DNA from: a virus
Strand: one strand, 5' to 3'
Virus record (IMG/VR): IMGVR_UViG_3300045988_109049
Length of the DNA stretch: 64,000 nt
Below the pieces are notes generated by a model. The model saw nothing but the letters and a program-made list of their open reading frames with translations. It was not told the DNA's origin and did not search any database. Made by a program: the position numbers and the translations under genes. Positions within the stretch are counted from its first letter, which is position 1, and each line of letters begins with the position of its first letter. Positions 1,399 through 47,343 of the stretch are shown piece by piece.

Positions 1399-4300
1399 TT
1401 AAACTCTATAACCAATCAACTTTCTAAGGTCTTCAGGCAACTTGTTGATGTCAAGTTCATGAGTCCCTTCCTTCATAAGAGGTTCATAGAATTCTCTTGA
1501 ATAAGCAGGCATATAACATTCGAGATATTTGATTCTCTTGTTCTCACCTTCTCCTTCAAATACCACATGAAGCTCATCAGTCAAGCCATAATCAGATACC
1601 TGAATTAATGCTCCACCTCTAATCTTCTGCTTGGTAATTCTGCTCTTGATGATACTATTAAGAAGAGTCTGTACTCTTTGAGATTGTACAGGATCAAATA
1701 ATGGAATATTGAACTGACCATTCTCATTAAGGGTACAGGCTCTGACCATATCAATTCCATATCTCTGATTACCTCTAATCTCTTCAAGTAGTGCCTCCTC
1801 TATCTTCTTAGGGTCTTTGAATATATCATTCACATTCTTGAATGCTTGCAAGATATTCTCAGTATTGATTGCATTATACAGGTCCAGCCATTCCTGCTTG
1901 GTCATTTTCTTACCATCAACCTCAATAATAGCATCTGATGCAATATCAGCAGTAATCAACTTTCTAATCTGAGTACCTACAAGCTGCACAGCATCAATAG
2001 CATGTTCAGGAGTTGCAGTCTGAATACCATAATCTTCATAGCTTATTTTATGTACTACATTAGGATTCTCAATACCATTAGGCATAGTAGTATTCTTCAA
2101 TACCTCCTTTACTTGCCTGAAGTCACTAACCTCGTTAAGGTCAATAACACCTTGCTTCCCGACTTTAGTAGTAGATTCAAATTGAACTACATCAATATTG
2201 TTCTCTTCCATGAATTCATTAATAGCTTTAAGCTTGCTTGATTTACTAAGTGGACCAGCTATTAACTCATGCATGGCAAGTAATAAGAATTCAGAGTTCT
2301 TATGCTGTACAGGAGTCTTAATACCAGTATGACCTTCTACACCACTCATGTTGCTAATTTGGGTATATACATAAGGTTTCTTAGTCTGCCAGATGATATT
2401 AAAGTCAGCAATGTTCCAAGTACCATTTTTGAAATTATTATATGCCTGCTCCATCTCATCTGTCCATTGGCCAGACATACCAAGTATTGCTCTATAGGAG
2501 CTTAAACTTCTATAAGCCTGTGCATCTGCAACATTAACTGCCTTAAACTTGTTAATAATATTATCTCTATCCATCTTGGGCATTTCACCTTTCTTAACTC
2601 TCTCATCAAGAACTGTTTCAATATCACTCAGTACTGAAGATACAACCTCATCATCCTTCAAGTAGATAGTTCTTTCCCAATCTCTACCAATTCTTTCTCC
2701 CTTATAAGTAGCTTTGGTATTCATTCTAAGAGCTGGGGCATGAACCTCCTTATATCTCTTCTGAAAGTCCTCTACATTCTTATAGAAAGCTAAGTCGGTA
2801 GTAGTTAACTCAATAATTTGAGAAGTAGCTAATTTACTATTCCAGTAATACTCTCTTAATGCAGCTTTTGTATTATTCTTTACTATAAGGTTTTTGTTAA
2901 TACTATCTGCTTCTTGTTTAGTAATATCTCCTCTTATAGACTTCTGATTTATTAAGTCTTTAATTTGTTGGAACAAATCTGTAGCAACTCTATCATCTAC
3001 TGGATTATTGTTGTTATAATCTTTCAATAACAACTCCATATCAGTAGTCCATAAAGTAGTACCAAGGATTTCTTTAGCTTTGATAAGAGACTTTGCAGTT
3101 CTTGAGTTCTGCTGTGATTGACCTGCAAAAGGTAAGTACTTATACTTTCCATTTGGTAACTCATCAAATAAACCAATTCTTGCCCAGTCTCTATATGCCT
3201 CTTCAAAGCCATTATCCATAACTTCTCTAAGAGTATCTCTAATGAATTCCTTTAACTCAGCACCACTGCCTTCCCTGCTCAATCTACTCAATCTGTCAAG
3301 GAATGTTTCTCCATTATTATATCTAATGGAATTAAGTGCAGGTAAGAACTTAAACTCAGCTCCCCCTATACTCTTAATACTTCCATCCTTCTTCCTGGAA
3401 ATATCATAGTTTGCTATAGGGGAGATGTTTGGATTATTATTCTGAAATTCCTCATCTCTTGCTCTGACAAGCATTATTCTGTCATATTCTTGATTGACTA
3501 AATCAGTTAGTTTATCAAGGATAATATCATCATAAGTCAGCTTGTTCCCATTCTCATCATATTCAACTCCACTTACATACTTTCTGAATCTAATGAATTC
3601 GGCAGAAGGAGAGTCTGAAAGAATAGGAACATGATACCAGGCCCACTTTACACTTGTTCTGCTGTCCTCTGGATCTCCCCAATATTCAGTAAGTAATGCT
3701 AAAGTATAGTCTAAGTCATCCCAATTAGTATAATCCACTTTATCAGAGTTCAATACTACTTTATGATTTAGGCCTCTTCTCATTTCCTCAGAGTTAACCA
3801 GTTGCTCTAACCAGTCACTTCTCCATCTCCCATCTTTAAAGAACCACTCATATTGCTTAAACTCAGTATTAATAAATTCTTCAAATCTCTTCCTATCTCC
3901 TCTTACATTCTTAAGCTGTTTAATTAACTTTCCAAGATAATTTGGGGTGACATGAGAGTAATAAGACTTATCATTCTCTCTAACACTACTTTCAATAGCA
4001 TCTTCAGTTACATTAGCCATCATATTTGCAATTGCACTATAAGCTGAACCAAATGTATTGATTAAGTCTCCTCTCTTCTCTATTCCATCTTCTCCTGTTT
4101 CTGACTTTATTTCCCCCTTCTTGATTCCTTTGAATATAATATTCAATTGAGGTAGTAGGACCATAATAGGGTCAGTAAACTTAGCTGTATCAGAAGTTCT
4201 AATATCAGTTAGTGCATTTCTTAATATAGAGGGATTGGCATCAATACCAATCATATTCAACAGCTTTAGTATAGTTTTCCAGATCCTATCATCCTCAAGA

Positions 4301-5751
4301 AGTTCTAATCTTGCTTCAGTATCCAAATTAGAGAATTTATTGTTTAGAGTTTCAACCCACTTAAGACCTTTTTCAGCATTTTCAATATTTATGTCCCCAT
4401 TCTTCTCATATACACTATCATTATCAAGTTGCATACCATTCTCATAGTTATCTCTCCAAGCATCAAGAAGGTAATATACACCTTCAGGCTTGTTAATAGC
4501 AATGGTTTGCATCTTGAATGTACCATCAAGCATCGTCTTTTTCTTCTGGATCCAATAGGGTATAAAATCCTTTCTAAAATCTTGATAGAACTGAGAAAAT
4601 AGAGTATCATCTTTCTCAAGCAATTCTCTTACTTGAGCCACCCAGGGTTTATTCCTTTCAAGCTCCTGTATAAGAGGAATCATATCTTCAGAAGTAATCA
4701 TATCTCTCAATTTATCAATAAGAGTTGCATGAACATAATCAGCATCTAAATACCTTAGATTACCCAAATCATCTTCCTCATACATTCCTTCATAGTCAAG
4801 CCTGGGTATTTCCCTAATAACTTTTCTAACTGCTTGAGATGATAATTCATGGGAACTAACTTGTCTAAAGTTAGTCATCCAGCCATCTTTAAAAGTCTCT
4901 TCCTTATTATAATCATCAGCTTGCTCATCAAGCTCACTGTATCCTTCAGGAGTATCATCATTTAAGTTAGCATCTTTAGGAGCAATATAGTTCAAGTCAA
5001 TTCTAACTCCTTCTGTCATTATGAGTAATGTGCTAGCTTCTTCTGCCAAAGGTTTAAAGTTATCAACAACTTTTCTATAAGCTTGTTCCTTATATACAGC
5101 TTTTCTTCTTGCAGCATCCAATTTTTGTTCATCAGAGAATCTTTCAGATTCATCTATAACACCCTCATCAATTAATGTCTGCTCTCTTGCATTTATTGCC
5201 CCAAGTTCAATTTGTACTCTATTCTCTTCTGTATCGTTGATATAGGATTGAAATATATCCAATACTCTATCAAATAATCCAGCAGGGGTGTATTTCTTTA
5301 TGGCATCAAATCTATTAAGGGAGCTTAACTCCATCTGTAATTGTAATCTTTCTTCATCAGAAGCTGTATCCATTCTCTTATTAAGAGAATCATTCATTTC
5401 CTGTAGTGCTTTATCTACCTCATTACTAAAGAACCTTGCAATAAGACTTACTCTATCTCTTCTTGTTCTTGGATCAAAGTCTAAATCAACCTTAGCTTGT
5501 TCTTCAATAGAAGAGACCTTAGGAGCATCAAATGAAGGAGATAATGCTTCATCGAGCATCTCTACTGTATTTGCACTTCTTAGTTTAAATCTAAAATTAT
5601 TAAGTTCTCTTACAGTAGGATACTCTTCAATAGATTTATTATTCTCTTTTTGCCACAAAGCTACAAGACCCTTTACAGATTCCTCTGTTTCATCTTGTAA
5701 CTCCTTAGTTAGGTACCTAATCTCTTCAGTTGTTACTAAACAATTATTCAT
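1399..5751 (-). CDS. 5' exon of the giant virion-type RNA polymerase-like protein (1450 aa to the in-frame stop inside the intron)
   Basis: Long uninterrupted ORF. It continues after the intron into the exon carrying DFDVD. Size and context are typical of crAss-like giant RNAP genes. The last few codons (..LIGYRV*) probably belong to the intron. Confidence 0.6.
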   Translation of the reverse strand: MNNCLVTTEEIRYLTKELQDETEESVKGLVALWQKENNKSIEEYPTVRELNNFRFKLRSANTVEMLDEALSPSFDAPKVSSIEEQAKVDLDFDPRTRRDRVSLIARFFSNEVDKALQEMNDSLNKRMDTASDEERLQLQMELSSLNRFDAIKKYTPAGLFDRVLDIFQSYINDTEENRVQIELGAINAREQTLIDEGVIDESERFSDEQKLDAARRKAVYKEQAYRKVVDNFKPLAEEASTLLIMTEGVRIDLNYIAPKDANLNDDTPEGYSELDEQADDYNKEETFKDGWMTNFRQVSSHELSSQAVRKVIREIPRLDYEGMYEEDDLGNLRYLDADYVHATLIDKLRDMITSEDMIPLIQELERNKPWVAQVRELLEKDDTLFSQFYQDFRKDFIPYWIQKKKTMLDGTFKMQTIAINKPEGVYYLLDAWRDNYENGMQLDNDSVYEKNGDINIENAEKGLKWVETLNNKFSNLDTEARLELLEDDRIWKTILKLLNMIGIDANPSILRNALTDIRTSDTAKFTDPIMVLLPQLNIIFKGIKKGEIKSETGEDGIEKRGDLINTFGSAYSAIANMMANVTEDAIESSVRENDKSYYSHVTPNYLGKLIKQLKNVRGDRKRFEEFINTEFKQYEWFFKDGRWRSDWLEQLVNSEEMRRGLNHKVVLNSDKVDYTNWDDLDYTLALLTEYWGDPEDSRTSVKWAWYHVPILSDSPSAEFIRFRKYVSGVEYDENGNKLTYDDIILDKLTDLVNQEYDRIMLVRARDEEFQNNNPNISPIANYDISRKKDGSIKSIGGAEFKFLPALNSIRYNNGETFLDRLSRLSREGSGAELKEFIRDTLREVMDNGFEEAYRDWARIGLFDELPNGKYKYLPFAGQSQQNSRTAKSLIKAKEILGTTLWTTDMELLLKDYNNNNPVDDRVATDLFQQIKDLINQKSIRGDITKQEADSINKNLIVKNNTKAALREYYWNSKLATSQIIELTTTDLAFYKNVEDFQKRYKEVHAPALRMNTKATYKGERIGRDWERTIYLKDDEVVSSVLSDIETVLDERVKKGEMPKMDRDNIINKFKAVNVADAQAYRSLSSYRAILGMSGQWTDEMEQAYNNFKNGTWNIADFNIIWQTKKPYVYTQISNMSGVEGHTGIKTPVQHKNSEFLLLAMHELIAGPLSKSSKLKAINEFMEENNIDVVQFESTTKVGKQGVIDLNEVSDFRQVKEVLKNTTMPNGIENPNVVHKISYEDYGIQTATPEHAIDAVQLVGTQIRKLITADIASDAIIEVDGKKMTKQEWLDLYNAINTENILQAFKNVNDIFKDPKKIEEALLEEIRGNQRYGIDMVRACTLNENGQFNIPLFDPVQSQRVQTLLNSIIKSRITKQKIRGGALIQVSDYGLTDELHVVFEGEGENKRIKYLECYMPAYSREFYEPLMKEGTHELDINKLPEDLRKLIGYRV

Positions 5752-23066: not shown

Positions 23067-23641
23067 TTAAAGTCAAAACATTCTTGCGTTAGCAAATTTT
23101 GAAGCTCTTCCAATAATCCAAGAGCAATTTGGGCTTCTCTGGCAGATCTGAAAGCAGCGAAGTTTTTGTAATCCTTGATACATCCTTTTCTCAGGTTATA
23201 AACTTTCATACTAATTATATCTACCATATATATGTCAGGGCTATTACTAATATGATCTTCATAATTGGCATCTAGATCGATAGCTATTTCCCTTAAGAAC
23301 ATAGTATATAGTGAAGCTGGACAAATATTAAGTAAGGTAAAAAGGAATTCCATAGAATTCTCTTCATTTAGACTGGATTTTTGGCATATTTTCCTAAGAT
23401 AATACTCTACATCTTTTTCAGATTTAAGGGGTCCTTCTTCTAGATCTTCTCTCTCTACTATTAAACCTTTTTTAATTAGTTTACTTATGCTATTAGAAAG
23501 TACAATAAATTCTTGAATTACAGAAAAGTAATCTCCCCTACGTACTCTTCTTATAACGTCACCCATTTTTACTTCTTCACCTGCTTTAGTGTAATACCTT
23601 TTCTTATTCATATTTTTCTGTTTAATGTCAATATTCTTCAT
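23063..23641 (-). CDS. hypothetical protein
   Basis: Co-oriented ORF, overlapping starts and stops. Confidence 0.6.
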   Translation of the reverse strand: MKNIDIKQKNMNKKRYYTKAGEEVKMGDVIRRVRRGDYFSVIQEFIVLSNSISKLIKKGLIVEREDLEEGPLKSEKDVEYYLRKICQKSSLNEENSMEFLFTLLNICPASLYTMFLREIAIDLDANYEDHISNSPDIYMVDIISMKVYNLRKGCIKDYKNFAAFRSAREAQIALGLLEELQNLLTQECFDFK

Positions 23642-24119
23642 ACCATTTTATGGAATACCCATAAATATCTCTTAATTTTTTATCTATTTCATCAAATAGA
23701 TAATGAGGCATCTTTGTCCCACTCCTTGCAAAGTATGCAGGATGCTCAATTTTTAAAATGTGATTAAATCTTTTATTAATATATAGATCAAATGTTTGAG
23801 CTTGCTTACCGAATAATACATATATAATGGAACAAGAACATTCAGATAGATTCTTTAATAGTTTGGCTATGAATGGTCTCCAAACCATGACATGAGAACC
23901 TATTTTATTCATCTCCACTGTGAGGGCAGAATTAATCATTAATATACCCTGCTTGGCCCAACTCTCTAAAGTTTGGTCAAAGATAATATTATTGTGGGGA
24001 ATTTCAAAATCTATTACTGCTTCTTTTATCACTTGAAGAGAAGGAGATAAATTCTCTTCTAAGACTTCCTTCCTATTTCCAAATAATACACCAGTGGCTA
24101 TTCCTTTCTGGGGATAAGG
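23628..24119 (-). CDS. ung: uracil-DNA glycosylase family 1, 3' exon
   Basis: Begins PYPQKGIATGVLFG, then QGILMINSALTV, VLFGKQAQ, IEHPAYFA. The intron-terminal G is at 24120. The ORF-track Met is a TTG inside the intron/exon junction. Confidence 0.8.
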   Translation of the reverse strand, partial: PYPQKGIATGVLFGNRKEVLEENLSPSLQVIKEAVIDFEIPHNNIIFDQTLESWAKQGILMINSALTVEMNKIGSHVMVWRPFIAKLLKNLSECSCSIIYVLFGKQAQTFDLYINKRFNHILKIEHPAYFARSGTKMPHYLFDEIDKKLRDIYGYSIKWYEEY

Positions 24120-24260
24120 CAATTTGTTACCCTAACAGCTCTTTATCTGTTAGTTCTATATGTTACCATATAGTTCGGACTATATCTTCATTGTTTACAA
24201 TGCAGGGCACTCGTGTCAGGTTTATTATTTGAGCTATTCACCTGTTAGTCTCTGAACCTT

Positions 24261-24965
24261 CTACATACTTTTATGCTCTTCTGTAGCTTGGCTGCTGATT
24301 GACTCATTAAGTTGTTCCAGCAATTCACCCTGTTTATCCAGAACCCTTCTTTTACTATAAGTAATTAATTTATACTGCATAGATGGAATAACAAAATCTT
24401 TAATCAGCTCTACAAATTTAGGAAAATCCTTAGCTTGCAGATACATACTATTATCATGCTTGCCTACAGTAAAATGTAAATCAAATTTATCTAATAATAT
24501 ATTAGCTAATAAAGATTGTTCTTCTAAAGTAAAAGAACAAGTAGATAAGATACATGAATTTTTAGTTACATAACCATCGTCCATATACCATATAGCTAAA
24601 CCTAAAGTATCCATATCTTTTACAAATTCTTCAAAAACTCTTTTATGACCATTAGAATCATAGTATTTTAATCTTATATTTGTAAAGATAGGATGTAATC
24701 TAGATTTAAATCTATACCCTACTAATTCGTGTGAATATCTTTTATTATTTATATGATACTCAACTATAGGAGATACTAAATTATACTTATTTAGTATATT
24801 CCATTTATACTCAAGATATTCTTTTTGTTTTTCAGAATGTGCTATACTAAGACACATATTCTTAGTTTTACTTCCTACTGAACAAAAACATCCATCTCCT
24901 AATAAACTTCCTATAAGAAGTTGTTTTAAGTCATTACCCATTTCTAAATCTTTATGATTCTTCAT
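24261..24965 (-). CDS. LAGLIDADG homing endonuclease (double-motif)
   Basis: LIGSLLGDGCF and LAIWYMDDGYV. The C-terminal codons overlap intron P4-P6 and R. Confidence 0.85.
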   Translation of the reverse strand: MKNHKDLEMGNDLKQLLIGSLLGDGCFCSVGSKTKNMCLSIAHSEKQKEYLEYKWNILNKYNLVSPIVEYHINNKRYSHELVGYRFKSRLHPIFTNIRLKYYDSNGHKRVFEEFVKDMDTLGLAIWYMDDGYVTKNSCILSTCSFTLEEQSLLANILLDKFDLHFTVGKHDNSMYLQAKDFPKFVELIKDFVIPSMQYKLITYSKRRVLDKQGELLEQLNESISSQATEEHKSM

Positions 24966-40251: not shown

Positions 40252-40611
40252 TTATTTCAATTCAACAGGTTCATCTTCCCATGTAAGATCCCTACCTATA
40301 AGTTTCTTAATAGAGCCTTTTGGGAGAACAACTAAGTAATCTAATTTGTTACCATCAGAATCAAATTCAAAATTATCCCAGAATGAAAGAACTTCTATAG
40401 CTTTTCCCCTATCCATTTTGAATGGACTATTGTAAGTTGCTCTACTATACCTTTTACCATCTCCATCGACTATACAACTTATCCCATTAGAAGCGCACTT
40501 ATCACATAAAACAGGATCACATTTTTTGTATCTCTTATAATATCCACTTCTGTATAAAGAATAATCTGATATTATTTCCGTACCATCCTTATTAACCGCC
40601 AGATATGCCAT
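40252..40611 (-). CDS. hypothetical protein
   Basis: Co-oriented ORF with an ATG start. A stop lies 7 codons upstream in frame, so it is not an exon continuation. Confidence 0.6.
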   Translation of the reverse strand: MAYLAVNKDGTEIISDYSLYRSGYYKRYKKCDPVLCDKCASNGISCIVDGDGKRYSRATYNSPFKMDRGKAIEVLSFWDNFEFDSDGNKLDYLVVLPKGSIKKLIGRDLTWEDEPVELK

Positions 40612-40764
40612 ACTGTATAATTTATTTCTTTAATATTACAAATAATTTTACTCTTACTTATAGTTCACAAATTTGTGGAGCATGAGGGATTCGCGAAGTT
40701 AGTAATTTCTTTAATATTCCAAAATAATTTCTATTATACTGTTATCTATGTGCTTGATTATTCT

Positions 40765-40772
40765 TAACTTTG
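40765..40772 (+). promoter_or_regulatory. Candidate -7 element TAACTTTG upstream of the plus-strand HNH gene
   Basis: Read directly. It lies 16 nt upstream of the ATG at 40788. No good -33 element. Confidence 0.4.
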
Positions 40773-40787
40773 TACAAAACTTAAAAT

Positions 40788-41348
40788 ATGGAGTTATACA
40801 AACAGAAAAGAAAACTAGTAACTGTCACTTGTGATTACTGTAGAGAGAGTTTCTCTAAACCAGAATCAGAGTATAAAAGAAATATTAAATTAGGCAGACA
40901 TAACTTTTGTTCAAGGTCTTGTTGCGGTAAATACATTGCATCTCTCAACAAGCCTCTTACTCAAGCTCAAATAGGGTCTAGAAACTCTATAAGAAACTAT
41001 AGTAGTAATAGAAATGATGAGTACACACCATTTAGAGAAATTCTAAGAACCGTAAGAAACAGGTGTAAAGAATTTAATCTAGATTTACCTTATCTTGTGG
41101 AACTTTGGAACTCACAAAATGGTATTTGTCCTTATACAAGACTTAAACTTGTTTTACCTACTTGGAATACTAATCCTGACATAAGATATAGAGCTTCACT
41201 TGACAGAATAGATTCTTCTAAAGGATATATTAAAGGTAACGTGCAATTTGTTGCGACTCCTATCAATTATCTTAAAGGAACTATGTCAGATGAGACTACT
41301 AAAGCTTATCTCAGAGAAATTGCCGCTTCTATTTTCATAGAAGATTAG
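40788..41348 (+). CDS. HNH endonuclease (free-standing or antisense-intronic)
   Basis: SLDRIDSSKGYIKGNVQFVATPINYLKG is an HNH-type core. N-terminal Cys pairs CDYC..CSRSCC. It is the only plus-strand gene inside the minus-strand module. Confidence 0.7.
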   Translation: MELYKQKRKLVTVTCDYCRESFSKPESEYKRNIKLGRHNFCSRSCCGKYIASLNKPLTQAQIGSRNSIRNYSSNRNDEYTPFREILRTVRNRCKEFNLDLPYLVELWNSQNGICPYTRLKLVLPTWNTNPDIRYRASLDRIDSSKGYIKGNVQFVATPINYLKGTMSDETTKAYLREIAASIFIED

Positions 41349-41900
41349 ACTATATCATCACCTCAATAATTTGAGGGTAGGACGCTCAAGCTGGTAATTA
41401 AGGAGACTGTACTCCTCCAGTAGTCGTTGCACTTTCATTAGGTGTACCTAATGCTTAGCTCAGGATTGGCATGATAAAAGCTAGTTCTGAGCTTTTATTT
41501 TAGCGTTCCCTGAGTTCATCCTATTTTGTAAATACTATCACTAGTAAGCGGGTCCGAACTTAAACCCTCGTCTTACTAACTTTTAATAAAAGAATTTCAC
41601 ATGTTTACCACTTTGATATGTAGTAGGTTCTCTACTGGGGTCAACCGATAGTTGACAGATCCACCACTCTATTTAATCTAATAGAGAAATCTTCATAAGG
41701 AGTTATAAGAATTAAAATTGAAGGGTCACACCCTCTGCATACACCAGGCAGCTTGCTCCTAACTAATAAACAAACTATATATAATATTAAAGGTGTATTG
41801 AAAGTAGGTATAGCCTTATTAACTTCCTTCTTGACCCTATTATTCACCTTTCTGTTTCCAAGCAGGTGAGGCTCAGCCTACAAGTTAGGCGGCAGCTCTA
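41326..41900 (-). ncRNA. Group I intron-like ribozyme core with no recognisable flanking exons
   Basis: Minus strand: P AACUCAGGGAACGC (P4 5' strand 41514-41509), Q CAAUCCUGAGC (41468-41458), R GUGCAACGACUACUGG (41432-41417), S GAUGAUAUAGUCU (41359-41347), then P9-like CUUCUAU-GAAA-AUAGAAG (41343-41326). Many further hairpins up to about 41900. The 5' extent is uncertain. Confidence 0.7.
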
Positions 41901-42419
41901 TAAGTGTTGCCAGTTAAAGTTTTGATGTCTTTCCATCAGTCTTTACATGTTCTCTTACCAAATAATTAGCAATCAAAACCAAATCATGCCCCATATTATA
42001 GTGGAAGAAGTTGTTAATACTGATTTTTTTTTGCTGTATGTAACATCTTCTTCCACCTATAGTCAATCTCTTTTCATTTTTCTTACTTTCTTTCCAGATT
42101 TCATTTTCTCTGTCTTTTTCACCTGGAGTTCTTCATTACTGTAATCATTAATATTTATTCTTTTCATTTTTCTATTTCGTCTTACTGAAAAATAACTTGA
42201 ATATTGTTTTCCAAATACCGGATCTTTGTTTCTCAGGCTGTTGAGTGTTCTCCATTGCAGTCTTTCTGTTATAGTTTACACTCTTCTTCCCTACTGTGAT
42301 AAAGACAGTATTTGTCTTGTCATTTGAGTCTTTCCTAGATAGGGCTGTCTTCTTCCTTAGTAAATCTTCTTTTAGTTGTCATTTTCTTTAGAATTGGTTA
42401 AAAATATAAATAGTTATAG

Positions 42420-42491
42420 TGGCTCCTCCCAGATTCGAACTGGGATTAGAGGCTTAGAAGGCCACTGTTCTTTCCATTGAACTAAGGAGTC
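42420..42491 (-). tRNA. tRNA-Arg (anticodon UCU)
   Basis: Hand-folded cloverleaf: acceptor GACUCCU/AGGAGCC (one A-C mismatch), D stem GUUC/GAAC, anticodon loop CUUCUAA, T arm CCCAG-UUCGAAU-CUGGG. Confidence 0.7.
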
Positions 42492-42646
42492 TTTTAAAAA
42501 TGATAGTCTATTCCTATCAGTCAAATAAACAAAAATCTTTATTGAATCTGAGAAAGGTATAAGTGTTTTGCTATACGTATAATTGCTATTGAACCTATAT
42601 TACTCCTATCTTTCATGGGCTTTTTGTATTATTATGATTTCCTGCG

Positions 42647-42718
42647 CACTCCTAATAGGAATCGAACCTATATCTACTCTCTAGAAGAGAATTGTTCTAT
42701 ACATTGAACTATAAGAGT
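42647..42718 (-). tRNA. tRNA-Arg (anticodon UCU), second copy with a different body
   Basis: Acceptor ACUCUUA/UAGGAGU, D stem GUUC/GAAC, anticodon stem AUUCU/AGAGU, loop CUUCUAG, T arm AUAGG-UUCGAUU-CCUAU. Confidence 0.7.
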
Positions 42719-47271: not shown

Positions 47272-47343
47272 GCTCCCTTCTTCCAATGATTAGGAAATCA
47301 GTTTTGTACTCTGAGAATAAAGGTTTGAATCCTTTAGGGAGCT
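47272..47343 (+). tRNA. tRNA-Thr (anticodon UGU)
   Basis: Acceptor GCUCCCU/AGGGAGC (7 perfect bp), D stem UUCC/GGAA, anticodon loop UUUGUAC, T arm AAAGG-UUUGAAU-CCUUU. Confidence 0.8.

Follow-up and report, generated by a model that had tools for sequence, protein, structure and literature searches.

A group I intron in the T-loop of a crAss-like phage tmRNA gene, with a putative homing endonuclease gene on its opposite strand

Results

A group I intron splits a phage tmRNA gene

Our analysis of a 64,000-nucleotide (nt) stretch of virus DNA (IMG/VR record IMGVR_UViG_3300045988_109049; hereafter the window) indicated that the host of a group I intron on its minus strand is, as read from sequence, a phage-encoded transfer-messenger RNA (tmRNA; ssrA) gene at 41992..40676. 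The gene spans 1317 bp, and its 869-nt intron lies between bases 2 and 3 of the T-loop. An open reading frame (ORF) of 186 amino acids (aa) runs antisense within the intron, and the joint interpretation, a group I intron in a phage tmRNA T-loop together with an antisense homing endonuclease gene, is considered probable (about 0.85). The source phage is crAss-like, with 97-99.7% identity over the region to RefSeq cr128_1 (Steigviridae, Mahlunavirus), in whose record the tmRNA gene is unannotated.

A preliminary description, made from the letters alone, had reported an orphan group I core in noncoding DNA, overlapped antisense by an HNH endonuclease gene and next to a tRNA pair. The core itself was borne out. 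Our Rfam scan found three group I introns in the 64-kb window, one of them at 41326-41595 on the minus strand, where RF00028, the model that the description had suggested, scored 86 bits (gathering threshold, 50; E = 1.6e-20) over its full length (1-253); a permissive Rfam scan of 40500-42450 reproduced the match. The P, Q, R and S strings, the P7.1-like hairpin and the GAAA-capped P9 that had been traced by eye are all present in the matching parts of the Rfam alignment. The tRNA pair upstream consists of two tRNA-Arg(TCT) genes, and no protein-coding exon flanks the core. ROOL, GOLLD and other large noncoding RNA models, also suggested at that stage, were scanned against the whole window, and none reached threshold. 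Among the explanations offered, an intron within a noncoding RNA gene was the right one, the tmRNA gene being the host.

The first clue to the host was a BLAST match between window positions 41563-41993 and the annotated tmRNA of cr106_1, which ended exactly at 41563. Read on the minus strand from 41992, the sequence begins GGGGCAUGAUUUGGUUUUGA..., a typical tmRNA 5' end, and continues in the order acceptor GGGGCAU (41992-41986), helix 2, tag frame, pseudoknot region, T-stem GAGGG (41569-41565) and UU (41564-41563); the exon ends in GACGAGGGUU, with its last base at 41563. The 3' exon, CGAAUCCCUCAUGCUCCA (40693-40676), follows 869 nt past the 5' exon. The "further hairpins" of about 400 nt noted in the preliminary description turned out to be the tmRNA body, that is, the 5' exon, which extends to 41992. 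It had found no tRNA halves around the element; they are the T-stem GAGGG with UU, ending at 41563, and CGAAU, CCCUC and AUGCUCC-A at 40693-40676, an 18-nt exon that was missed because it lies beyond the antisense, plus-strand ORF. The gene is composed as follows.

41563..41992, minus strand: tmRNA 5' exon, 430 nt, aligned to the cr106_1 tmRNA and 99.1% identical to the intron-less allele L007
41885..41911, minus strand: tag reading frame (A)GNTYRAAA*, with resume GGC, then GGC AAC ACU UAU AGA GCU GCC GCC UAA
40694..41562, minus strand: group I intron, 869 nt, starting UAAGUUCGGACCC... and ending ...AACUUCG, missing from six alleles and present in three
40676..40693, minus strand: tmRNA 3' exon, 18 nt, comprising the rest of the T-loop (CGAAU), the T-stem strand CCCUC, the acceptor strand AUGCUCC and discriminator A

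With the exons joined at the expected spliced junction, GAGGGUU-CGAAUCCCUC, the sequence forms a T-arm (GAGGG-UUCGAAU-CCCUC, with a 7-nt loop) and a 7-bp acceptor stem (GGGGCAU/AUGCUCC) that contains G3·U70. CCA is not encoded, the discriminator A being followed by CAA. The joined 448-nt sequence aligns across the junction, end to end, with the cr106_1 tmRNA, which ARAGORN calls with the tag DNTYRVAA* and RF00023 scores at 74 bits. The tag frame occupies tmRNA nt 82-108, the same register as the tags of ARAGORN-called relatives (DNTYRVAA* and GTSYKMAA*). Among 11 relatives, both stems covary: the T-stem is found as GAGGG/CCCTC, AGGGG/CCCCT, AAGGG/CCCTT, TTGGG/CCCAA and ACAGG/CCTGT, and the acceptor as GGGGCAT/ATGCTCC, GGGGATG/CATCTCC and GGGGGTG/CACCTCC. 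G3·U70 is present in 11/11, the spliced T-loops all read TTCGA[A/C/G]T, and the tag frames all end in AA. Pairings in helix 2, followed by eye, include one compensatory change relative to cr106_1 (ACAUGU/ACAUGU vs ACAUGC/GCAUGU). Alanylation, SmpB binding and trans-translation tagging are predicted for the window tmRNA.

Natural alleles define the intron boundaries

Viral contigs were scanned with the tmRNA 5' end, which yielded 18 loci. Six contigs (L007, L011, L016, L017, L020 and L023) hold an uninterrupted long-form tmRNA that reads ...GACGAGGGTT|CGAATCCCTCATGCTCCA, the L007 allele being GACGAGGGTT|CGAATCCCTC around the insertion point, and three others (L010, L018 and L019) are interrupted at the identical point by an insert of 869-871 nt. 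Exon identity to the intron-less alleles reaches 99.1%, and what they lack is exactly the 869-871-nt segment. The boundaries cannot slide, because the bases beside the insert differ from the insert ends. In a scan with RF00023 (gathering threshold, 47), three of the intron-less alleles were accepted at full length, with 60.8 bits for L007 (model 1-374), 62.1 for L011 and 63.2 for L017; the fourth tmRNA match of that scan, L012, a shorter intron-less form, scored 67.1 bits. By these comparisons, the identity of the gene, its exact intron boundaries and the presence/absence polymorphism are secure, and the comparison with related phages that the preliminary description had proposed is answered by an uninterrupted tmRNA at the locus in the six intron-less contigs. 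An intron start at 41595, as given by the Rfam alignment, was rejected in favour of 41562, the position given by the intron-less alleles; that alignment had misused tmRNA helix-2 and T-stem sequence as P1/P2.

Among the intron-bearing alleles, the introns are 99.4-99.5% identical, whereas exon identity is only 96-97%, and the nearest relative of the window by exon sequence is intron-less. Such a pattern would be expected for lateral spread via homing, and repeated loss is also possible.

Ribozyme structure and splicing

The pairings at both splice sites could be followed in the sequence. P1 is formed by GACCC (41554-41550) and the exon end GGGUU, with a U·G pair at position -1 of the 5' splice site, and P10 by UUCG (41558-41555) and CGAA (40693-40690), the first four bases of the 3' exon (4 bp); omega-G is at 40694, at the intron 3' end ...CUUCG. 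The P1/P10 scheme is likewise present in L028, L030, L025, L029 and cr6_1. RNAalifold, applied to nine related introns, recovered P3, P4, P5, P6, P7.1 and P9, with compensatory changes in 24 of the 42 pairs. The introns of L053 and L029 were recognised by direct alignment to the window's intron; RF00028 reported no intron in either locus even at E <= 1.

41550..41558, minus strand: internal guide sequence UUCG-GACCC, read from the sequence
41326..41519, minus strand: catalytic core P3-P9 with the P7.1 hairpin and GAAA-capped P9 (41343-41326), from RF00028 and RNAalifold
41316..41322, minus strand: AAUUUCU just 3' of P9, tentative candidate for the 5' strand of a long-range helix looping out the antisense ORF
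40704..40710, minus strand: AGAAAUU, 10 nt before the 3' splice site, tentative candidate for the 3' strand of that helix

In silico removal of the intron restores the canonical T-loop UUCGAAU, and self-splicing is predicted. The canonical splice sites and the standard T-loop after removal leave the earlier suggestion of a ribozyme co-opted for tRNA processing or for regulation of the HNH mRNA unsupported. The long-range helix around the ORF is tentative: its counterpart in L028 is AAUUUCCUUG/UAAGGAAAUU, with one compensatory change from U-A to C-G, and candidate stems occur in every intron, but they are short and AT-rich, so that chance stems are likely.

On another reading, the core is an orphan, an intron stranded or decaying after loss of its host gene, with the plus-strand ORF as an unrelated neighbour. 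The core does stand without protein-coding exons, and what lies between the tRNAs and 41993 is coding sequence in decay; however, the two tmRNA exons are conserved and undamaged, identity in the core is 99.4-99.5% among contigs, and the -1 U·G, omega-G and P10 are all present. The uninterrupted alleles, which differ only by the insert of exactly 869-871 nt and pass RF00023, already refute this explanation, and we regard it as hardly credible.

The antisense gene encodes an HNH-like protein

The plus-strand ORF lies between P9 and the 3' splice site, and its arrangement is as the preliminary description had it: the TAG stop (41346-41348) abuts S, overlapping its end, and the last codons are antisense to P9.

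40788..41348, plus strand: antisense ORF, 186 aa, with an FCS-type zinc finger and an HNH-like "DRID" domain, between P9 and the 3' splice site
40765..40772, plus strand: TAACTTTG, a TAnnTTTG box 15 nt upstream of the ORF's ATG, candidate promoter by motif match

Pfam recognised only the N-terminal zf-FCS in this protein. PHROG profiles matched residues 13-179 as endonuclease (E = 7e-20), endonuclease VII (1e-13) and HNH endonuclease (6e-13). Our search for homologues gave 1217 proteins at E <= 1e-5. In 42 diverse members, the zinc-finger residues C15, C41 and C45 are invariant, and at least 90% have C18; within the motif A-S-(L)-D-R-I-D-S..G-Y..G-N.Q...I-N..K, only Leu138 varies (conserved in at least 90%). 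Within D139-R140-I-D142 ... N151 ... N160, the Asn positions fit HNH metal ligands. The AlphaFold2 model (predicted local distance difference test score, 88.8) places strands at 135-140 and 152-156 and a helix at 159-165 around the motif. D-R falls where HNH enzymes carry D-H, as strand 1 of the predicted beta-beta-alpha unit ends. The protein is best described as HNH-like and as a putative homing endonuclease; the tmRNA gene as its candidate target is suggested by position.

The differences from L025 are distributed as 14/9/56 over the three codon positions, with 48 synonymous against 20 non-synonymous codon changes, a pattern that shows the ORF to be under purifying selection. TAnnTTTG is the Bacteroidetes -7 promoter consensus. 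The box is found 15-25 nt before the ATG in the window, L025, L028, L029 and cr6_1 and is not found in L030 or cr1_1, and the antisense gene probably has its own promoter. A sigma-70 promoter/terminator scan returned fewer promoter-like sites than shuffled controls, a comparison that is uninformative for a Bacteroidetes phage.

The ORF contains an (AG)4 run at 40842-40849, which is (AG)5 in L026 and L027, on the contigs of L018 and L019. The longer run shifts the frame after 20 codons, in introns that are still 99.4% identical and retain an intact ribozyme. It could reflect decay of the endonuclease gene, slippage-based switching or an assembly error; frameshifted copies are as expected for a selfish homing endonuclease gene. 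Fixed-site presence/absence polymorphism, identity above that of the flanks and degenerate copies, the marks of a mobile element, are all found here.

The antisense transcript could instead have a mainly regulatory role, with the plus-strand mRNA pairing with pre-tmRNA, delaying or blocking splicing and thereby timing the phage tmRNA. The ORF shares 23 nt with P7-P9, and the 3' third of the intron is complementary to it throughout; antisense homing endonuclease genes in introns of nuclear ribosomal DNA (rDNA) are known to raise the same problem of interference (PMC9548176). Selection has nevertheless acted at the protein level, with third-position changes prevailing, the L030 ORF does not overlap the core, and the free-standing relatives considered next are antisense to nothing. 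We therefore judge a mainly regulatory transcript to be quite improbable.

Relatives of the protein are linked to tmRNA genes

All phage relatives of the 186-aa protein that were recovered lie antisense within a T-loop intron of a tmRNA gene. They comprise L024 (on the contig of L010 and near-identical), the frameshifted L026 and L027, L025, L028, L029 and L030 (these four with 56-89% amino-acid identity to the window's ORF), cr6_1, and L033-L036, which are contigs of phage type from metagenome-assembled genomes (MAGs). A scan of one genome per prokaryotic species gave 80 loci, 26 with full-length relatives and 54 with partial, domain-only matches. Of the 26 full-length relatives, all in bacterial or MAG contigs, 22 adjoin a tmRNA gene or sit within one: ARAGORN called the tmRNA in 16, Rfam added L053 and L038 (a permuted tmRNA), and L033-L036 have split T-loops. 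Among the other four, two stop at a contig edge. For the partial-domain relatives, an ARAGORN tmRNA within about 2.5 kb was found in 0 of 54.

Three layouts were observed: the gene is free-standing by an intron-less tmRNA gene, lies by a tmRNA gene with an ORF-less intron, or is nested within the intron. Cyanobacterial members include Scytonema, Calothrix, Stigonema and Laspinema; in the five cyanobacterial loci examined, an intron-less tmRNA is followed by a terminator-like hairpin with a T-run, and the ORF's ATG lies 50-70 nt downstream on the same strand. In Sulfurovum, where the tmRNA gene likewise lacks an intron, the HNH-like gene is convergent with it. L053 represents the second layout, with an ORF-less intron of about 240 nt, of the window's ribozyme lineage, in the tmRNA gene and a free-standing HNH-like gene about 100 nt downstream.

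Two observations concern individual bacterial members. The proteins of L047, L043 and L055 (Scytonema, Laspinema and Calothrix) are 320-353 aa long and have two tandem DRID domains per chain, an arrangement that resembles that of homing endonucleases turned single-chain pseudo-dimers. In L042 (Neomarinimicrobiota MAG, about 2422-2460), a second copy of the final 14 nt of the tmRNA (ACACACCTCCACCA) occurs 8 nt further on, immediately ahead of the HNH-like ORF; this may be an insertion footprint.

The bacterial HNH-like genes might owe their place to ssrA being an integration hot spot, that is, they might be genomic-island cargo. Although tmRNA genes are often island integration sites (PMC11915505) and the L042 repeat of the tmRNA 3' end just downstream would suit such an origin, no second tmRNA 3' end was found within the locus in seven of eight loci (L040, L043, L045, L047, L048, L053 and L055). 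The ORF starts about 50-70 nt past the tmRNA in the six cyanobacterial or Neomarinimicrobiota loci examined (L042, L043, L045, L047, L048 and L055), and in the five cyanobacterial ones the terminator-like hairpin and T-run precede it. A scan of flanking ORFs in L047 and L043 found no integrase domain, and the neighbours are ordinary, one in L047 being ATP synthase gamma; moreover, the same protein family occurs inside phage tmRNA introns. Island cargo is therefore improbable, also for the cyanobacterial loci.

Several points weigh against the joint interpretation of intron and homing endonuclease gene. ARAGORN calls no tmRNA in the window sequence, either unspliced or spliced in silico, and the RF00023 support comes from the natural intron-less allele L007 (99.1% identical), not from the window's spliced sequence. 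The motifs behind the promoter box and the long-range helix are short and AT-rich. Neither Pfam nor NCBIfam finds a nuclease domain in the 186-aa ORF, an invariant Arg takes the place of the catalytic His (DRID for DH) in the 42 homologues, which leaves the HNH signature incomplete, and a Foldseek search against PDB gave no significant match (best E-value, 0.04). The top Foldseek matches, none significant, were mostly HNH domains (Cas9, Cap5, PacI, Gme and T4 endonuclease VII), and a PDB sequence search with the ORF gave only a zinc-finger match (E = 0.07). Accordingly, the name "HNH endonuclease" used in the preliminary description is supported in part, by the PHROG profiles and the position of the motif, but not by Pfam or NCBIfam or at the catalytic His. 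The ARAGORN result on the spliced sequence was not counted against the gene model, because the program is equally blind to the uninterrupted long-form alleles that RF00023 accepts. The pseudoknot region contains about 146 nt (window about 41705-41850, minus strand) that have no counterpart in the tmRNAs of cr106_1, L008, L013 and L022, which probably explains why ARAGORN misses the long form. In the permissive Rfam scan of unspliced 40500-42450, the tmRNA matches were sub-threshold (17-18 bits) and pointed to the tag region only.

A different reading keeps the intron in the tmRNA gene as real and denies that the ORF is a homing endonuclease: the protein would bind DNA or RNA without nuclease activity and serve a function linked to tmRNA, for instance in regulation or processing, or it would be what is left of a nuclease, and the intron would be mobilised otherwise or not at all. 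The invariant Arg, the lack of a match to curated nuclease models and the non-significant structure search all suit it; one PHROG match is labelled Srd anti-sigma factor, and adjacency to tmRNA across phyla could mean function rather than homing. However, the distribution is sporadic, placement relative to the tmRNA varies (downstream on the same strand, convergent or in an intron), presence or absence of the gene goes with the intron, and frameshifted copies stand next to intact ribozymes. DRID also occupies the DH position at the first-strand end of the predicted beta-beta-alpha unit, a stretch in the second DRID repeat of L047 has a weak match to a Cas9 model (24 bits; cutoff, 100), and the cyanobacterial domain is tandemly duplicated, like monomerised homing endonucleases. 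A non-endonuclease role is accordingly regarded as doubtful, and a homing endonuclease remains our preferred interpretation of the ORF.

Permuted tmRNA genes in Suoliviridae

Circularly permuted tmRNA genes with an intron in the acceptor piece were observed in Suoliviridae cr1_1 (L004, NC_055873; 2485-3189 and about 3190-3430) and cr6_1 (L003, NC_055894; 2497-3367 and about 3368-3720). In both, the T-arm, split by the intron, and the acceptor 3' strand precede the tmRNA 5' end (GGGGCUG.../GGGGCAU...), which follows with the tag frame after 90-190 nt. After in silico splicing, ARAGORN called a permuted tmRNA in cr1_1, with the tag GNTMFVTDYSCVA*; its intron lies after the sixth loop base (position 7), and its antisense gene is a canonical PF01844 HNH. 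The cr1_1 ORF was considered as a member of the window ORF's family and rejected, since the zinc finger is all they have in common and its HNH domain is the canonical PF01844. In cr6_1, A rather than G precedes the 3' exon, and ARAGORN finds nothing. In cr6_1 and cr1_1, the tmRNA pieces with the intron are closely preceded by the RNA motifs RAGATH-7-assoc (133 bits), RAGATH-9 (122) and RAGATH-22 (125), at 2327-2448 and 1045-1190 of L003 and 1601-1801 of L004; the Rfam scan found no RAGATH motif in the window.

Discussion

Our data suggest the following course of events. Pre-tmRNA may be co-transcribed with both upstream tRNA-Arg genes, and the intron would splice itself out by the standard guanosine-initiated pathway, using P1 (GGGUU/GACCC), P10 (UUCG/CGAA) and omega-G. 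Ligation of the exons would regenerate the UUCGAAU T-loop, after which tRNA-type end processing, CCA addition and alanine charging via G3·U70 may yield a mature RNA that tags stalled nascent chains with (A)GNTYRAAA. The 186-aa protein, for its part, would cut or nick, close to the T-arm, the tmRNA genes of co-infecting phages that lack the intron, and recombinational repair could then copy the intron and the endonuclease gene into the cut allele. Antisense placement may free endonuclease expression from a highly structured, untranslated host RNA.

The hosts of crAss-like phages belong to class Bacteroidia. Group I introns in the tmRNA T-loop are known already, having been first described in Clostridium botulinum (Williams 2002, as cited in PMC1995217), and the window holds a member of this class in a new setting and with unusual cargo. 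A 2025 tmRNA census, which included RefSeq viruses in its survey, listed 883 unique intron sequences at four insertion subsites, with position 3 only in class Bacteroidia (PMC11915505). The endonuclease genes reported there were of the LAGLIDADG type only (36/883 introns), some of them inserted after P9; no intron exceeded 700 bp, and the longest gene was 1152 bp (PMC11915505). The host gene, the loop, the -1 U, omega-G and the reconstitution of the T-loop are the same in the window as in the bacterial tmRNA T-loop introns, and the insertion after the second loop base equals position 3 of the census, in a numbering that we infer from its text (PMC11915505). The window differs from the census introns in its phage genome, its 869-nt intron and 1317-bp gene and its antisense HNH-like gene (PMC11915505). 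In their text parts, the supplements of the census contain no crAss or phage entries (PMC11915505), and surveys of crAss-like phages report introns in protein genes only and make no mention of tmRNA (PMC7886860). The tmRNA forms distinguished in the census are standard, intron and permuted, with no-CDS (no coding sequence) variants of the standard and permuted forms (PMC11915505); the permuted-plus-intron form is not among them.

The tmRNAs of cr106_1 and cr114_1 (annotated) and of Kehishuvirus 'tikkala' (unannotated) are 80-82% identical to that of the window over the shared parts. They have the same tRNA-tmRNA neighbourhood and a similar tag, but lack the intron and have a pseudoknot region about 146 nt shorter.

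Antisense homing endonuclease genes have been described in nuclear rDNA introns, namely Didymium Dir.S956-2 and Diderma Dsq.L2066 (PMC9548176). As in the window, the endonuclease gene there runs opposite to an intron in a structural RNA gene, with a presumed promoter of its own and possible interference with the precursor. Those systems are eukaryotic, with His-Cys box enzymes, RNA polymerase II, poly(A) and spliceosomal introns, whereas the window has a phage setting, an HNH-like protein and a bacterial-type promoter box. In the literature searched, no antisense homing endonuclease gene was found for bacteria or phages. A second precedent is collaborative homing, in which a free-standing endonuclease acts with an ORF-less intron, as in cyanophage S-PM2 psbA and F-CphI (PMC3984707; PMC6083498). 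The three layouts of the DRID family match the stages of collaborative homing toward composite mobile introns (PMC3984707). In contrast to S-PM2 psbA/F-CphI, the target here would be a gene for RNA and not for protein, the endonuclease gene in the nested form runs antisense, and the match between cleavage site and insertion site is an inferred one.

Three features appear to be new: a phage host together with the longest intron of the tmRNA T-loop class; an antisense homing-endonuclease-like gene with DRID for DH; and the linkage of its full-length relatives to tmRNA genes. We would give even odds to a broader proposal, that the zinc-finger and DRID proteins make up an unrecognised homing endonuclease family dedicated to the tmRNA gene, in which all stages from free-standing gene to composite intron have been kept. 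On this proposal, the nested antisense form of crAss-like phages would apparently be the first outside eukaryotic nuclear rDNA, and a related ribozyme would have invaded permuted tmRNA genes in Suoliviridae, with an antisense gene of DRID type in cr6_1 and a canonical HNH gene in cr1_1.

What had looked like an orphan ribozyme is resolved by these findings, and a complete phage tmRNA gene comes to light, which owing to its long intron is missed in the cr128_1 RefSeq record and by standard tools such as ARAGORN and, with gathering thresholds applied, the tmRNA models of Rfam. The range of tmRNA introns now includes an abundant human-gut phage family and a new type of intron-borne gene. The link between the HNH-like family and tmRNA offers a testable natural series for the merging of free-standing endonucleases with ORF-less introns, and it supplies a case from the bacterial world for asking why genes in structural-RNA introns become antisense. 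The finding further prompts one to ask how a phage benefits from encoding a ribosome-rescue RNA itself.

Neighbouring features and other introns of the window

Upstream of the tmRNA gene, the minus strand carries the tRNA pair and a spacer.

42646..42718, minus strand: tRNA-Arg(TCT), first of two, upstream of the tmRNA gene (ARAGORN; RF00005, 60.8 bits)
42419..42491, minus strand: tRNA-Arg(TCT), second copy (ARAGORN; RF00005, 58.5 bits)
41993..42418, minus strand: spacer separating the tRNA pair from the tmRNA gene, what deletions have left of a 107-aa ORF and further sequence (alignment with L007)

This spacer belongs to the stretch in which the preliminary description had found every frame closed by stops. 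Compared with it, the intron-less L007 has the intact 107-aa ORF at 5274-5597 and about 570 nt extra; by alignment, 113 nt have been deleted from within the ORF in the window, and there is a further deletion of about 570 nt. Just downstream of the tmRNA gene, a 119-aa ORF (40252-40611, minus strand) has no Pfam or PHROG match. It is missing from L007, where the next gene begins about 120 nt after the tmRNA, and cr128_1 is also divergent here, its match beginning only at window position 40469. This ORF is a variable gene adjoining the homing site.

The second group I intron of the window, at 24156-24403 on the minus strand (RF00028, 85.9 bits), splits a gene of the uracil-DNA glycosylase family, with the downstream exon ORF at 23628-24122, and carries a sense-strand LAGLIDADG_2 ORF (24261-24965), a conventional layout unlike that of the tmRNA intron. 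The third (RF00028, 54.4 bits), at 537-780 on the minus strand, shares sequence with an HNH_3/NUMOD ORF (702-1247) on the sense strand and lies directly downstream of a 1450-aa ORF (1399-5751); its 3' exon would pass the window start. At 47272-47343 on the plus strand, Rfam reported a tRNA (53.8 bits) that is not in the ARAGORN list.

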